Shown here: positions 33,720 through 57,897 of the stretch, piece by piece
Position numbering within the stretch: position 1 is the first letter of the stretch
Layout: each line of letters starts with the position of its first letter
From: a virus
Length of the DNA: 64,000 nt
Virus record (IMG/VR): IMGVR_UViG_3300000970_000006
Strand: one strand, 5' to 3'
Program-made: the position numbers and the translations under genes
The notes under the pieces: generated by a model
Told to the model about the DNA's origin: nothing
Databases searched by the model: none
What the model saw: only the letters and a program-made list of their open reading frames with translations

Positions 33720-33743
33720 AAAGAGGCAAAATGCCTCTTTTTT
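33720..33743. terminator. Bidirectional terminator
   Basis: aaagaggca-aaa-tgcctctttttt between convergent genes. Confidence 0.75.
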
Positions 33744-34314
33744 AATTGTGAACAGGCTCTTCATAATCTGTAAGCAAGCCGTCCATCATAAGACGAAATC
33801 CATCACGCATATATGTTATTCCGTGTAAAAATTTAGGATTACGATCCATATAAGTAAAATGTGATTTTTCGTAGTGATTATAAGTATTATCATCTTGTGG
33901 AACTACATCAGCCCATTCAAAATTCCATTGACCATCATCTTGTTGAGTAGTTCGTTTTAAGCAATACGTTTGGTCATTAACACAACCATTTAAAAGTATT
34001 ATTGAATCAGCTTTTGGGTCGTCGCGCGGCATCGCAATATTATTATTTTCAAATTCCTCTCTCGTATACGTAGATGTATACGCTTCTTGAATGCTAATAT
34101 AAGCATCATAATCTTTTTCGATTAATGTAAAAGCTGAAATCAATTTACCAACTTTAATATATTGGTCATCATCGTGCCGTAAATCAATATAACTAACAGG
34201 TACATTATTTTTAAAAAATATAATACGCGGCTGAAGTACATCATCAACTTTAGTTGCGCTTACCGCGTATTTTGCTGCAGTGTTAAATAATGTTTCTGTT
34301 GTAGTGATTGTCAT
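33742..34314 (-). CDS. Hypothetical early protein
   Basis: GGAG RBS; promoter at 34340-34368. Confidence 0.7.
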   Translation of the reverse strand: MTITTTETLFNTAAKYAVSATKVDDVLQPRIIFFKNNVPVSYIDLRHDDDQYIKVGKLISAFTLIEKDYDAYISIQEAYTSTYTREEFENNNIAMPRDDPKADSIILLNGCVNDQTYCLKRTTQQDDGQWNFEWADVVPQDDNTYNHYEKSHFTYMDRNPKFLHGITYMRDGFRLMMDGLLTDYEEPVHN

Positions 34315-41137: not shown

Positions 41138-41662
41138 ATGGACACAGATACCCTATTTTCAAATGTAACTTCATTATCTGGTGGTTTCTTTCGACCAAAC
41201 AGATTTATGATGAATATTGTGCCGCCTCAGCCACTCGCTGGTGCGCGTACTGATTTATTACGTGTATCACTAAACTGTAACGCAACTGGAATTCCTGGCC
41301 GCACCATTGCAACTCGTGATGTAGCATTAGGTGGTTCGATGACACGAAAAATTCCACATTCTGGCTTAATGAATGAATTGACAACAACTTTTTATATGTC
41401 AAAAGATTTTTCTGAAAAACATCTTTTTGAGGCGTGGATAGATTTAATATATCGGGCATCAGATGGAATATTAGGTTGGTATAGTGATTACATATCTGAT
41501 ATGCAATTAGATTTACTTAATGACGATATTACGACGCAGGCATACGTATTTAGAGAAGCATATCCTTTGTCAGTTGCCGAAGTTCCTTTATCATATGATG
41601 CTGTTAATCAATCAGGAATGCTAAGTGTTACATGGGCGTATAGAGAATGGGAGACAGTATAA
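41138..41662 (+). CDS. gp54/gp19-like tail tube initiator
   Basis: GGFFRPNRF, CNATGIPG, FEAWIDLI, EAYPLSV, VTWAYREW. Confidence 0.8.
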   Translation: MDTDTLFSNVTSLSGGFFRPNRFMMNIVPPQPLAGARTDLLRVSLNCNATGIPGRTIATRDVALGGSMTRKIPHSGLMNELTTTFYMSKDFSEKHLFEAWIDLIYRASDGILGWYSDYISDMQLDLLNDDITTQAYVFREAYPLSVAEVPLSYDAVNQSGMLSVTWAYREWETV

Positions 41663-42087
41663 TGCAAGATGATGATATTTTTAAAGAGCTAAAAGAGGGT
41701 AAATCTAATACATTACCTGCAGCTGAAAAGAAAACAGAAATTGAAGAATTTGATTCAGGTGAAAAATTAATAGACGACCCTGAAATAAGAGAAGCTGCCG
41801 ATTTAGTTAAAAAGAGTATGCGAATAGGCGTAGGTGCTTTAGAGGGGGCATCAATATTAGCAGATAGTACAGATGACCCTGCTGCTTATAGAGTGATAGC
41901 AAGTATTATGGCTGCGGTTAATGATTCCGCTGTTACAATGGCCAAATTAAAAGGCGGTGATAAAGAAACACCTAAAAAGAAGACAGGCGAAGAAGCTATT
42001 AACGACCCTTCGCCTGTCACCATTGTTTTTGAGGGTAATCCCAAAGAAATACAAAAGAAGTTTACCGACATAGACAATGAAAAATAA
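41662..42087 (+). CDS. 16: gp16-like small terminase subunit
   Basis: ALEGASILADSTDDPAAYRVIASIMAAV...VFEGNPKEIQK resembles gp16 (ALELA.ESDHPRAYEV...FVGSTAELQK). Confidence 0.65.
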   Translation: MQDDDIFKELKEGKSNTLPAAEKKTEIEEFDSGEKLIDDPEIREAADLVKKSMRIGVGALEGASILADSTDDPAAYRVIASIMAAVNDSAVTMAKLKGGDKETPKKKTGEEAINDPSPVTIVFEGNPKEIQKKFTDIDNEK

Positions 42088-42089
42088 AA

Positions 42090-42198
42090 AGCTGCCCGCT
42101 AAACATTGGAGAACTAAAGCGAGCAGCTAGGGTTGTGACTATAAAGGAGTACCAAAATAGTCACGTTTGTCCGGCGACATGAAAAGGAACCGGACAAA
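42090..42198 (-). ncRNA. Three-hairpin 3'-UTR RNA with anti-SD loops; last hairpin doubles as terminator
   Basis: Stems 42166-74/42190-98, 42135-42/42157-64, 42090-100/42118-28; loops contain UUCCUUUU, GUACUCCUUU, UUCUCCAA on minus strand. Confidence 0.6.
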
Positions 42199-42203
42199 TT
42201 AGT

Positions 42204-43775
42204 TTATCGTACAGGAGCACCTACAGTTTTACCGATAGCAATACTGTTATCGTATGTTTTCTCTGCACGATTAGCCTGAGATTCAAGCGTTTCATTCACT
42301 TCACCAATACGTTGAGCGAGAGCGCCGGCAGTACTTGATAGGTGTTGAACATTTGAGCTGACTTGTTCAGAAGCATGCATAATTGCACTCGTATCGCCCG
42401 TTGAATTGTTGACCAATTTCGAGAATACTTGTCCAAATTCTTCTTCGATGCTGATTTCGTCTTTGTCAGCGTTAAGAAGTGCAAGGTGACCCTCCATACC
42501 ATGAGCACAAGTAATCAAATCGCTTGTCTCAATTTTATCACGACCATACATCAATGCTGTACGTTTTGCTCGCTCAACAACTTCACGAATTGTTGCTGGA
42601 ATTTCACCTGCAAGAATTTCGCTAACTTCGTCAAGTTCGGCTTTCGGGTCAAGCATTTCACGACCATACAAAGTAATAAGACGTTGTGCAGCTTCTTTTT
42701 CAGGTGGTTTGATAGAAATAACGCTATCAAGACGTCCTGGGCGCAACATAGCTTTGTCGATTTTTTCAACATAGTTTGTTGTCATCACGGTGATAACTTG
42801 ACTTGATTTTGTGAGAACGCCATCAATTGTGTTAAGAATATCATTACCTGTTTGGTCACGAATTTCAACAACACGGTCAATATCTTCCGCAAACACAACT
42901 GCAGGTTGATAACGCTGAGCAAATTCAAGAGCAGTTTTCAAACCACGCACATCATCAAGAAGAATGTATGTCCAACCATTGTCAACACAAACTTTTGAAG
43001 TAACGTGAGCTGACATTGTTTTACCAGTACCATATTTGCCTTCAAGAAGAACACCAATATTCAAAGGAATTTGGTTTTTGAGACACGCTTCTGTGTGCAT
43101 GATTGGCGCCCACAAAGATGCTTCAACTTGTGACAATTCATTTGGATTCAAAATCAAATCATCTTGTTTGATTTGGTCTGTTTCCAAAAATAGAGGCGGA
43201 CGGTCAAGCTCAAGTTCGCCAGAACGGTCGACAAGAAGGCGAATTGATTTACCCTTATAGATTGAACGTTCTGCCAGAATTTCACGCGTTTTGACGGCCA
43301 AATCGCGAAGGAAACCTTGTTCTTTTTTGCGAACTTTGCCTGTAACAACAAGCATAGGCATGCCGTCTTCGTTACGAGTTTTATGCATTGAAATAGGCTT
43401 TTCAATGTTAGGCAATGTAAAATCACCAAATGGCACAATAATTGCTTCGTGGTCTTTTGGTCCTGTTTTGATTGTTACCAAATCAGGAGCTTGAGGGCCG
43501 AAGAAAGTCATACGGGGTGTTGGTGATGTAATACCATACATTTCAACCATTGCTTTGTTGAATGCGACCATAGCATCTTCAGGATAGCCTTCAAAATCTT
43601 CGCGAATATCCATAATGGTATTTTCGTCGTCGATTTTTCTTTGAATTGCTTCAATGGCTTTCACATATGGCATTTTGCTTGGTTGAGCCGGCAAAGTAAT
43701 TTTCTGGCCAGTGTGCTCAATTTCGGTGTCGATGTTATCCCACTTCGACGGTTTGGCTTTTTCTTTAGTACCCAT
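42204..43775 (-). CDS. AAA+ ATPase with large N-terminal domain
   Basis: LLEGKYGTGKT, VFAEDID, TTNYVEKIDKAMLRPGRLD; AAAGGAG RBS. Confidence 0.9.
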   Translation of the reverse strand: MGTKEKAKPSKWDNIDTEIEHTGQKITLPAQPSKMPYVKAIEAIQRKIDDENTIMDIREDFEGYPEDAMVAFNKAMVEMYGITSPTPRMTFFGPQAPDLVTIKTGPKDHEAIIVPFGDFTLPNIEKPISMHKTRNEDGMPMLVVTGKVRKKEQGFLRDLAVKTREILAERSIYKGKSIRLLVDRSGELELDRPPLFLETDQIKQDDLILNPNELSQVEASLWAPIMHTEACLKNQIPLNIGVLLEGKYGTGKTMSAHVTSKVCVDNGWTYILLDDVRGLKTALEFAQRYQPAVVFAEDIDRVVEIRDQTGNDILNTIDGVLTKSSQVITVMTTNYVEKIDKAMLRPGRLDSVISIKPPEKEAAQRLITLYGREMLDPKAELDEVSEILAGEIPATIREVVERAKRTALMYGRDKIETSDLITCAHGMEGHLALLNADKDEISIEEEFGQVFSKLVNNSTGDTSAIMHASEQVSSNVQHLSSTAGALAQRIGEVNETLESQANRAEKTYDNSIAIGKTVGAPVR

Positions 43776-43935
43776 GTACTAGTACTCCTTTAAGTTTCTT
43801 TTAAATCGAATTATTCGATAAAATGAAAGTATCATATAGTATATTTTAGTGAAAGTGCTTTATGTCTTTTTTTGTTATTTTTTTCTAAAAAATTAGTTTA
43901 GACTGTTTACATTCTATAAGTAAAAATCAAATAAT

Positions 43936-43964
43936 AAAAAAAGGCCGCATAAAGCGGCCTTTTT
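43936..43964 (-). terminator. Terminator after nadV (bidirectional form)
   Basis: aaaaaaaggccgc-ataaa-gcggccttttt. Confidence 0.8.
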
Positions 43965-43977
43965 CGTATGCGTTTTT

Positions 43978-46878: not shown

Positions 46879-47001
46879 TTGTGATGTTCGGGGAGTCAGT
46901 TTCATGGAGGGGGAGGCTACCCCGAACATCACAAGAGTGTGAATACTCAAACACACTCGGATATTTGCTGAAATCGGGAGGAGGATGAAATCAGCAAATA
47001 T
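46879..47001 (-). ncRNA. Cuckoo-like (alpha-r14/CcsR-type) three-hairpin sRNA
   Basis: 11-bp, 7-bp and 15-bp perfect stems; loops carry CCUCCUCCC (46976-46984) and CCUCCCCCUCC on minus strand; begins 11 nt after terB stop. Confidence 0.7.
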
Positions 47002-54890: not shown

Positions 54891-55133
54891 TTATTCGAAA
54901 ACAATTGGCGCTTCTTTAGCTTTCGCAATTGACGAAAATTCAAAGATTTGGTAAATTACCGGCTCTTCTTTTTTAAGTCCTTCGCGAATGCGTTCAGTTA
55001 CGATATTTTTCGCTGCGTCAAGAGATTCAAAACGCTCCATATCACCTGTTGGTTCGTAATGGAATTTTTTACCAGCATCGGTAACAACCTTTTTTACAGG
55101 TACGATAACAGCTGGTTGGTTTTTATCAGCCAT
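54891..55133 (-). CDS. Hypothetical protein, paralog family member 1 (shared C-terminal domain only)
   Basis: AAGGAG RBS before ATG 55133. Confidence 0.65.
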   Translation of the reverse strand: MADKNQPAVIVPVKKVVTDAGKKFHYEPTGDMERFESLDAAKNIVTERIREGLKKEEPVIYQIFEFSSIAKAKEAPIVFE

Positions 55134-56622: not shown

Positions 56623-57897
56623 TTATTTTTTTGTCTGTTTAGATTTAAAGTATTCCTGTATTTCTTTGTTTGTTGAGTAGTTAAGATGAAAAGATGCGTC
56701 AACTGGCGGAATTTCAGTAAATTCAGATTTTTTAATAGGATTTTTTCTATCAAAATGAGTACACATCTTTAACCAATTATCCCATTGAATAAATGACAAT
56801 TCAATATCAATATCAAATCTACCTTTTCGAATAAGAGCAGGGTCAAGCGATTCTTTATGATTAGTTGTTGCAATAACAATCATGCCATCGGGAGTTGTTA
56901 AGCCGTCAAGAAAATTAAGGACCTTTGATAAATTTGGAGCACCAAAATTTTTAAGATTTTTTGCGACTTTATCATCAGTGTTATTATTATCTCGATTAAC
57001 TGTTATTCCTGCAACGTCTATATCTTCCATAACAAACAGTGGATTTTCATTAACTGATGAAAATATATTACCACTTGATTCGTTAAGCGCAGCCGAGTCC
57101 ATTAAATGTATCGACAGATTAAATTCTGATGCAATTGCGTGAATAAAACTAGTTTTTCCTGTACCAGGTTTTCCTGACAATAAGATGCCGAAATGATATG
57201 GTATACCTTTTCTTTTATAATGTTCTTTTGAATCAATAAATCGGCGAAGAGCACTAACGACATAATCTTTATCATTATCATTTATAAAGATAGTATTTAA
57301 AGGCCGTTTTTCTTTTTTACATGCCGTATAAAAATATCCATCGGAATAAGTTTGAATTTTTATTTTGTCGTTCTTATTTTTATCTTTAACAAATTCATTA
57401 ATATTGAAATTAATACTTGTTGGAATCCAATTACCACGGCCTAAAACATTAATAGTCATTTGTTCTTTAAATTTAGCAGTAGCATTGCTTTCTTCTTTTT
57501 CACGTGTTACCGTACAGGGGACGTAGTAGTTAAATCCAAAAATAGAACGCTGTTTTAAAAAACCATAATGGGTTCCATAACCCACAGTGCTTTTGTAATC
57601 ACCAGAGTATTCATGGGACATATGAAATTTTCGTTGAATTTTAGTCCATACTACTTCATTTAGAAAATATTCTGATACAGCATAATATTTTTCATTATCA
57701 GAATTAAATGTGATTTGGGTAGTTACTATACGAATAAAAAAATGATAAATTCTAGATGGTATTTCCCGACACATGTATAATAAAGTGGCTAATAAACCAG
57801 ACCCTACCATGCCAATCAAAAATTCATTATCATTTATTTGTGCGGATAACCATTGTTCTCCATTAAGCCATAATGTATTATACAATTCTTCAAACAT
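56623..57897 (-). CDS. BCS1-like membrane-anchored AAA ATPase
   Basis: N-terminal TM (FLIGMVGSGLLATLLY), GIPYHFGILLSGKPGTGKTS, MEDID, LNFLDG, TTNHKESLDPALIRKGRFD. Confidence 0.85.
   Translation of the reverse strand: MFEELYNTLWLNGEQWLSAQINDNEFLIGMVGSGLLATLLYMCREIPSRIYHFFIRIVTTQITFNSDNEKYYAVSEYFLNEVVWTKIQRKFHMSHEYSGDYKSTVGYGTHYGFLKQRSIFGFNYYVPCTVTREKEESNATAKFKEQMTINVLGRGNWIPTSINFNINEFVKDKNKNDKIKIQTYSDGYFYTACKKEKRPLNTIFINDNDKDYVVSALRRFIDSKEHYKRKGIPYHFGILLSGKPGTGKTSFIHAIASEFNLSIHLMDSAALNESSGNIFSSVNENPLFVMEDIDVAGITVNRDNNNTDDKVAKNLKNFGAPNLSKVLNFLDGLTTPDGMIVIATTNHKESLDPALIRKGRFDIDIELSFIQWDNWLKMCTHFDRKNPIKKSEFTEIPPVDASFHLNYSTNKEIQEYFKSKQTKK

Follow-up and report, generated by a model that had tools for sequence, protein, structure and literature searches.

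Here we describe a phage gene whose messenger RNA carries, in the untranslated region behind its own stop codon, a hairpin loop that is an exact complement of the gene's ribosome-binding site (RBS), and a family of homologous genes in which such complements recur and change together with the RBS that they match. The gene encodes an AAA ATPase of an uncultured T4-like phage, and it is the only gene with this arrangement in the window, by which we mean the whole 64-kb stretch of DNA that was analysed. On balance we think it probable that the untranslated stretch at the mRNA's 3′ end (3′UTR) limits translation of the AAA gene by pairing with its RBS, much as happens in the icaR mRNA of Staphylococcus aureus. 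We infer that the two sites pair in vivo and that their pairing is repressive, and the contact could be made within one mRNA molecule or between molecules.

The genome to which the window belongs has a GC content of 33.8% over this stretch, which encodes the gp2 DNA end protector, a gp3-like tail completion protein, baseplate and tail proteins, NAMPT and a NadR-like enzyme. Searches of INPHARED in near and distant modes returned no DNA-level relative of the window, and close protein relatives of the AAA ATPase and of its gp3-like neighbour were absent from IMG/VR. For the AAA protein itself only identical copies were found, followed by a nearest homolog at 61% identity, and among public sequencing runs the stretch is present only in DNA runs of one algae-associated metagenome study. 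The AAA gene (42204-43775, minus strand) encodes 523 amino acids (PF00004, E 5e-14; phrog_10440, E 8e-100) with one classic-clade AAA domain at about residues 240-410 and an N-terminal part that is unassigned to any domain; its best solved relatives are the D2 domains of Cdc48/p97. In the GC profile the gene stands at about 41% against 34% for the window, and its nearest relatives sit in quite different phages of 64-70% GC, which together suggest that it was acquired horizontally.

The gene looks like an insulated single-gene unit. A strong intrinsic terminator behind the upstream NAMPT gene (43937-43965, minus strand) separates it from the upstream operon, and after that terminator come an AT-rich leader, the strongest Shine-Dalgarno (SD) sequence of the window, the gene and three hairpins, in that order. 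Within the leader, 13 nt upstream of the SD region, lies a 15-nt perfect palindrome, ATCGAATAATTCGAT (43805-43819, minus strand), which forms a small hairpin in the predicted fold of the 5′ fragment and could be a 5′ stem-loop or an operator. At the other end the unit meets a converging ORF of 146 amino acids (41647-42087, plus strand), the last of the gp2/gp3-like operon, whose stop codon falls within the complement of the U-tract of the AAA terminator. Between the end of this ORF at 42087 and the AAA stop codon (42204-42206) lies a gap of 116 nt (42088-42203). The window also holds a second, unrelated AAA ATPase (BCS1_N + AAA, 424 aa; 56623-57897, minus strand) amid small early-type genes, and a complement of its own RBS is absent behind that gene.

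Three consecutive hairpins, which an earlier note on this DNA had already placed after the AAA stop, occupy the gap: A at 42090-42128, B at 42135-42164 and C at 42166-42198. Their presence is confirmed by folding on both strands (z -6.9 on the minus strand and -5.7 on the plus strand), with 0 of 200 shuffles equally good. The same note preferred the minus strand on account of a G-U pair and a U-tail, and the predicted stabilities agree, all three hairpins being more stable there than on the plus strand (A -18.9 vs -15.7, B -12.7 vs -11.0 and C -10.3 vs -9.8 kcal/mol). Hairpin A, which with its U-tract spans 42080-42128 on the minus strand, has an 11-bp stem (42090-42100 with 42118-42128) and a 17-nt loop holding UUCUCCAA; its single G-U pair becomes a C-A mismatch on the plus strand. 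Directly after it on the minus strand comes the U-tract UUUUAUUUUU (42080-42089), which overlaps the stop codon of the converging gene. A G+C-rich stem with a U-tract right behind it on the transcribed strand is what defines an intrinsic terminator, and hairpin A is thus the predicted terminator of the AAA transcript, with a 17-nt loop that is atypical of the class; a terminator pattern scan did not list it, since the scan allows loops of at most 8 nt. Hairpin B has an 8-bp stem (42135-42142 with 42157-42164, minus strand) and a 14-nt loop, UUUGGUACUCCUUU (42143-42156), which is the anti-RBS. Hairpin C begins 5 nt past the AAA stop codon and has a stem of 9-10 bp (42166-42174 with 42190-42198, minus strand) with a 15-nt loop holding UUCCUUUUC; on the plus strand it is followed by the U-rich UUAGUUUAU, and it may serve as a structural element of the 3′UTR or as a weak terminator of the converging plus-strand operon. 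Each loop contains an anti-SD core (UCUCC in A, ACUCC in B and UUCC in C), and the region matches no Rfam family at the gathering score, nor at E up to 10. A second hairpin array stands behind the next operon (46879-47001, minus strand; z -8.5) with loops CAUCCUCCUCCCGA and CCUCCCCCUCC, so this phage has at least two 3′UTR arrays with anti-SD-type loops.

Read on the plus strand, the three loops (AUUGGAGAAC, AAAGGAGUACC and GAAAAGGAAC) all show GGA, and the plus-strand operon is likely to read into the hairpin region; the end of the gp2/gp3 operon transcript might then act as a set of decoy ribosome-binding sites or, as the earlier note had suggested, as a sponge of the CsrA/RsmA type. We consider this very improbable, and the sponge found no support in our analysis. 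All three hairpins are weaker on the plus strand, where hairpin A carries its C-A mismatch, and matches to CsrB/Rsm families are absent from Rfam even at E up to 10, so that the array does not belong with the CsrB/RsmZ-type sponges. Its loops, at 14-19 nt, greatly exceed in size the hexaloops typical of Rsm RNAs, and the nearest structural relatives, which are weak ones, infect Alphaproteobacteria. In the homologous loci, moreover, the element lies on the sense strand of the AAA gene and the next gene is co-directional, so the antisense of the element is not a defined transcript there. A small plus-strand ORF initiated from the SD-like loop sequences was likewise ruled out, a start codon being absent at any usable distance.

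The SD region of the AAA mRNA, UAAAGGAGUACUAG (43779-43792, minus strand, with the ATG at 43775-43773), is the proposed target of loop B. Its AAAGGAG is the strongest SD in a window where most genes have weak ones and where AAGGAG occurs at chance frequency, and the AAA RBS is nearly unique in this phage. The sequence TAAAGGAGTAC occurs exactly twice in the 64 kb, at 42142-42152 on the plus strand and at 43782-43792 on the minus strand, the second copy being the SD region, which ends 6 nt short of the AAA ATG on its upstream side; the earlier observation that one is the exact reverse complement of the other is therefore correct. Beyond these 11 exactly complementary nucleotides the match reaches 14 bp when G-U pairs are counted (42142-42155), running 4-7 bp past the SD core, and the duplex energy of -16.8 kcal/mol (RNAduplex) was reached by 0 of 1000 shuffled loops (p < 0.001). 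Against the AAA 5′ region, loops A and C did no better than shuffled loops (p 0.12 and 0.47, respectively). RNAduplex run across long 5′ regions yielded sprawling duplexes and was uninformative. Among the 79 genes of the window, the AAA gene alone is followed, within 73 nt of its stop, by at least 9 nt complementary to its own RBS, and a match of at least 11 nt in the 3′UTR has p = 0.006 in 20,000 dinucleotide shuffles of that 3′UTR. Since the A-rich leader and the U-rich tail inflate chance matches, the window taken alone is suggestive and not decisive.

This modest significance within the window favours another account, in which the hairpins are only terminators and 3′-end stabilisers at a converging junction (A serving the minus strand, C the plus strand, and B a spare) and the match of loop B to the RBS is a coincidence of an SD-like with an anti-SD-like sequence. 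The genes do converge at the gap, hairpin A has a textbook U-tract, hairpin C on the plus strand is followed by a U-rich stretch, and loop B resembles the 3′ end of 16S rRNA and so would match any strong SD. We nevertheless regard this account as improbable. Loops of 14-19 nt are unusual for terminators, and the match continues beyond the SD core, but what weighs most against coincidence is the comparison across AAA homologs, to which we now turn.

The AAA protein has about 1,760 homologs at E of 1e-20 or less. Homologous loci with their flanks were gathered from assemblies (three) and, by profile, from IMG/VR (80), giving 77 non-redundant loci. Choosing starts by SD energy, and calling ORFs greedily in high-GC loci, gave wrong AAA starts and lost AAA frames, and the control comparisons affected were discarded; for this reason we used a test that is independent of start choice together with a permutation across loci. 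The 5′ region comprised all in-frame start candidates and the 3′ region the 73 nt from the stop, and a match was counted only if it ended at most 12 nt upstream of an in-frame start. Exact complements of the gene's own RBS of at least 8 nt were found in 15 of the 77 loci, compared with 3.1 expected from dinucleotide shuffles; for at least 9 nt the count was 11 against 0.8 expected, and for at least 10 nt it was 7 against 0.17. Pairing real sequences across loci (5,762 pairs, also GC-matched) gave a similar expectation of 0.82-0.85 loci at the 9-nt threshold. When G-U pairs are counted, runs of at least 12 bp occur in 5 loci with 0.75 expected, and this test brings in one more clade, where wobble pairs span the positions at which RBS and anti-RBS differ. 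The trait occurs in about a fifth to a quarter of the AAA homolog loci.

The recurring complements are of six unrelated RBS/anti-RBS types, namely ATGGAGCAC(ACC), C(C/T)CACGGAG, GAGGTAAGA(AG), CCTACAGGA, GAAGAGGAGAG and, in the window, TAAAGGAGTAC, and they fall in at least five places of a quick maximum-likelihood tree. The window protein nests, with an SH-aLRT support of 99, in a clade of 8 of which 7 have the trait; the six other carriers share ATGGAGCAC and the window has a sequence of its own, so within this clade the trait has been kept while both partners changed. Changes in the GAGGTAAGA clade are compensated, partly through G-U pairs, and 6 of the 15 pairs in the anti-RBS-bearing hairpin of the sister clade show compensatory changes. 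The layout is constant, with the stop codon followed by an accessible anti-RBS (in an apical loop or a single-stranded linker, at an offset of 6-54) and then by an intrinsic terminator. The check that the earlier note had proposed, covariation of loop and RBS in homologous loci, is consequently passed: between stop and terminator, the anti-RBS of the homologs changes together with their own RBS. Terminators and a chance match would account for hairpin A and perhaps for C, but do not explain a recurrence in six sequences at more than ten times the expected rate, nor the presence of the trait in 7 of the 8 members of the window gene's clade. An inverted repeat at the DNA level, flanking a mobile cassette, was also considered and rejected, because the repeat is only 9-14 nt long, always lies on the SD and is always accessible before the terminator.

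Only some lineages have the element, which the protein family as a whole does not require: it is absent from the six homologs of cultured phages (KPP25, PhiW-14, ANB28, Arace01, MY01 and Rexella); a search for a cultured relative of the sister clade found none. A complete 69-kb phage of the sister clade has 17 gene-strand copies of the RBS motif TGGAGCAC, while the antisense of this motif has only two copies, one within a coding sequence and one in the AAA 3′UTR, which ties the element to the AAA gene and argues against a general feature of terminators.

Several further observations were made in these loci. In the complete 69-kb high-GC phage G001, which contains locus L012, GAAATGGAGCAC, an extended RBS motif, is common to 17 genes and precedes their start codons by 4-7 nt; far longer than pairing with 16S rRNA needs and not consistently in frame with the gene, it resembles a private tag for translation initiation. 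A distant AAA homolog (L062, 1417-1440) has as its RBS AAAGGAGTACCAAA, followed by C and the ATG; over 14 nt this RBS equals loop B of the window read on the plus strand, and it thus complements the entire loop perfectly. Only a plain terminator follows the stop of L062 itself. The window's loop could preserve the complement of an older RBS, with which the present RBS pairs through G-U wobbles, or the identity could be a coincidence. In three other loci the AAA gene has no element and a small downstream gene (L043:3229-3660, L066:3068-3350 and L018:3117-3480) has a complement of its own RBS right after the stop; in L043 this is CUCCUUGG in a hairpin loop opposite CCAAGGAG, and in L066 the complement is 11 nt long and makes up the terminator's 5′ arm. 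Genes other than AAA genes may share the anti-RBS design.

Predicted folding is consistent with contact between the two ends of the message. In the minimum-energy fold of the putative 1752-nt transcript of the window gene, nt 37-53 (the RBS) are paired with nt 1670-1692 (the anti-RBS) and hairpin B is lost. Cofolding the two fragments gives -61.8 kcal/mol, compared with -57.1 for the fragments apart, a gain of 4.7; the full duplex requires the opening of hairpin B (-12.7 kcal/mol), and the net gain is small. Across the homologs, long-range 5′-3′ pairing, counted when at least 8 nucleotides of the RBS window pair with the 3′UTR, is predicted in 11 of the 16 loci with the trait and in 1 of the 20 without it, the single exception having a 10-bp match when G-U pairs are counted. 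The earlier proposal of an autoregulatory closure of the mRNA is supported for the middle loop, by the covariation and by the 5′-3′ helix of the full-length fold.

A different use of the same loops would be action in trans. The 3′UTR, either as part of the mRNA or as a small RNA derived from it and sharing terminator A, would then mask with its three anti-SD loops the RBSs of a set of phage genes, including that of the AAA gene, and thereby silence a class of strongly translated (early) genes. This reading has common ground with the explanation that we prefer and differs from it in taking other genes as the main targets; the earlier note had offered it as a small RNA with several targets, all three loops being anti-RBS. 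The anti-SD cores are indeed there in every loop, UCUCC and UUCC in A and C included. In a search for RBS matches of the three loops, for which the sequence was extended to 94.4 kb, loop A has 12 nt of complementarity at the RBS of a DUF2786/DUF7168 gene (TGGAGAACTAAA; L097:13639-14313, minus strand) and 10 nt at that of a 407-aa gene (CATTGGAGAA; L097:16708-17931, plus strand), both outside the window, loop B has 9 nt at the RBS of a TerB gene, and a 10-nt match of loop C falls on the RBS of the gene that ends at 55133. Of the non-self matches of at least 9 nt, 6 of 23 lie within the 5% of the sequence that adjoins start codons, and in the sister clade one phage has a single RBS motif common to 17 genes. 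Compared with shuffled loops, however, only the best match of loop A is unusual (p about 0.01, before correction for three loops), loop C reaches a p of about 0.09, and the number of matches is not elevated. The match of loop A to TTGGAGAA at the RBS of 33742-34314, which had been noted before, is present, but 8-nt matches of that kind are as frequent with shuffled loops. The AAA RBS is nearly unique in the window phage, and in four other lineages nothing in the locus matches the element as well as the gene's own RBS. The layout of the 3′UTR fits small RNAs of the CpxQ/SroC type, yet the candidate targets of loop A (12 and 10 nt) are close to chance, and no separate promoter or processing site for a small RNA can be shown from the sequence. 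Action on other genes as the main targets is weakly supported, and we think it unlikely. It is compatible with self-targeting, and in those clades in which the RBS motif recurs at many genes, all of these could be targets of the one element.

In the mechanism that we favour, pairing of the 3′UTR with its own RBS, the AAA gene would be transcribed as a unit ending at the hairpin A terminator, and loop B in the 3′UTR would face its own SD region 1.6 kb upstream. Once the 3′ end is completed, loop B would nucleate pairing with the RBS, and the 14-bp duplex would compete with the 8-bp stem of hairpin B. The pairing would occlude the RBS, leading to less translation initiation and probably to lower mRNA stability too, and AAA synthesis would be limited mainly to the period before each transcript is completed. 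Since transcription reaches the anti-RBS last, ribosomes are free to load during synthesis of the 1.6 kb, and the output per transcript would be capped. In several homologs the anti-RBS is 6-20 nt past the stop codon, within reach of a terminating ribosome, so that active translation could keep the mRNA open, which is speculation. Against this mechanism count the entropic cost of pairing over 1.6 kb while ribosomes occupy the ORF and, in two clades, an RBS motif common to many genes, which fits action in trans as well as action on self. Coupling to the translation of a downstream gene was rejected for the window, where there is no co-directional gene behind the AAA gene, and is possible in some homologs.

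To our knowledge, there are few established cases in bacteria of pairing between a 3′UTR and a 5′UTR. In type I toxin mRNAs of the hok and aapA type, pairing of the 5′ and 3′ ends (the tac-fbi fold-back) keeps the full-length mRNA translationally inert, and these systems comprise small toxins, activation by 3′ processing and an antisense RNA partner. The comparison with them, drawn in the earlier note, is apt as an analogy of mechanism but does not extend to the system: the AAA product is a 523-aa ATPase and not a small toxic peptide, and neither an antisense RNA gene in cis nor a processing signal is visible. A phage precedent is the T7 gene 1.1/1.2 mRNA, in which, as Saito and Richardson are said to have found in 1981, an unprocessed 3′ segment reportedly pairs with the RBS unless RNase III removes it. 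Here too a 3′-terminal mRNA segment would inhibit translation by pairing with an upstream RBS; in T7, by contrast, the inhibition is relieved by RNase III and visible in RNase III-deficient hosts, and no RNase III site can be inferred here.

Among small RNAs, the Cuckoo, alpha-r14 and CcsR RNAs of Alphaproteobacteria similarly have several hairpins showing anti-SD-like, C/U-rich loops, and 3′UTR-derived Hfq-type small RNAs similarly have a seed located shortly upstream of a shared terminator; the window phage has a cuckoo-like CCUCCUCCC array 4.7 kb off. The AAA array itself falls outside the Cuckoo/alpha-r14/CcsR group, as its loops are UUCUCCAA, GUACUCCUUU and UUCCUUUUC and not CCUCCUCCC, and the Rfam covariance models do not match it. 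Unlike both the Cuckoo-type and the Hfq-type RNAs, it has its parent mRNA as its only statistically solid target.

The closest parallel is the icaR mRNA of S. aureus, whose 3′UTR base-pairs with the message's SD, so that the initiation complex is blocked and a site for RNase III arises (Ruiz de los Mozos et al. 2013, PMC3868564). There, a pyrimidine-rich anti-SD in the 3′UTR complements the SD of the same mRNA and lowers the protein, and the element is encoded in cis with no separate gene (PMC3868564); loop B likewise stands between the stop codon and terminator A of its own unit, and its complementarity to the SD is beyond chance (11 nt, p = 0.006 in the window; 11 loci against 0.8 expected, with co-variation). 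The icaR 3′UTR is long, and RNase III cleavage of its duplex has been demonstrated, whereas the AAA element, known from sequence alone, lies in a 3′UTR of about 125 nt, with the anti-RBS in a small hairpin loop beside the terminator and a 1.6-kb ORF between the two sites. It differs also in being phage-borne and in co-varying with the RBS over a protein family in unrelated phage types. Reporters in Bacillus subtilis bear on the question of distance, since SD-complementary 12-mers lower protein by 44% even from more than 500 nt downstream (Gill et al. 2025, preprint, PMC12697547), with long-range folding demonstrated by DMS-MaP, pairing in vivo, faster decay and less translation, and natural genes avoid such SD complements (PMC12697547). 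Like the AAA element, those reporters place the SD complement far downstream of the RBS; their 8-mers and 12-mers are engineered and lie within the coding sequence, at distances of up to about 500 nt, unlike the natural complement described here, which is retained, lies in a 3′UTR and is 1.6 kb away. Taken together, the sequence comparisons identify the element as a likely phage-borne, family-conserved variant of the known mechanism by which a 3′UTR pairs with its own SD.

The icaR arrangement has been reported as singular; here, many unrelated phages retain a natural anti-RBS behind genes of a single protein family, and an element that changes together with its target is the evidence usually taken for a functional RNA-RNA contact. 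Phage 3′UTRs accordingly deserve systematic screens for RBS complements. A broader proposal, which we put forward tentatively and at somewhat less than even confidence, is that this is a widespread and previously undescribed phage design. Genes of the AAA family in T4-like phages, in high-GC phages of roughly 60-70 kb and in others would carry a co-evolving 3′UTR anti-RBS that closes the finished mRNA onto its own RBS and, where an RBS tag is shared, shuts off a set of early genes, serving as a transcription-completion timer or an early shut-off switch that is kept through horizontal transfer by compensatory change. If the pairing does limit translation in this way, phages would possess a simple part, of use also for synthetic expression control, that acts as a protein-free cap or timer on the output of a gene, and possibly of a whole class of early genes.
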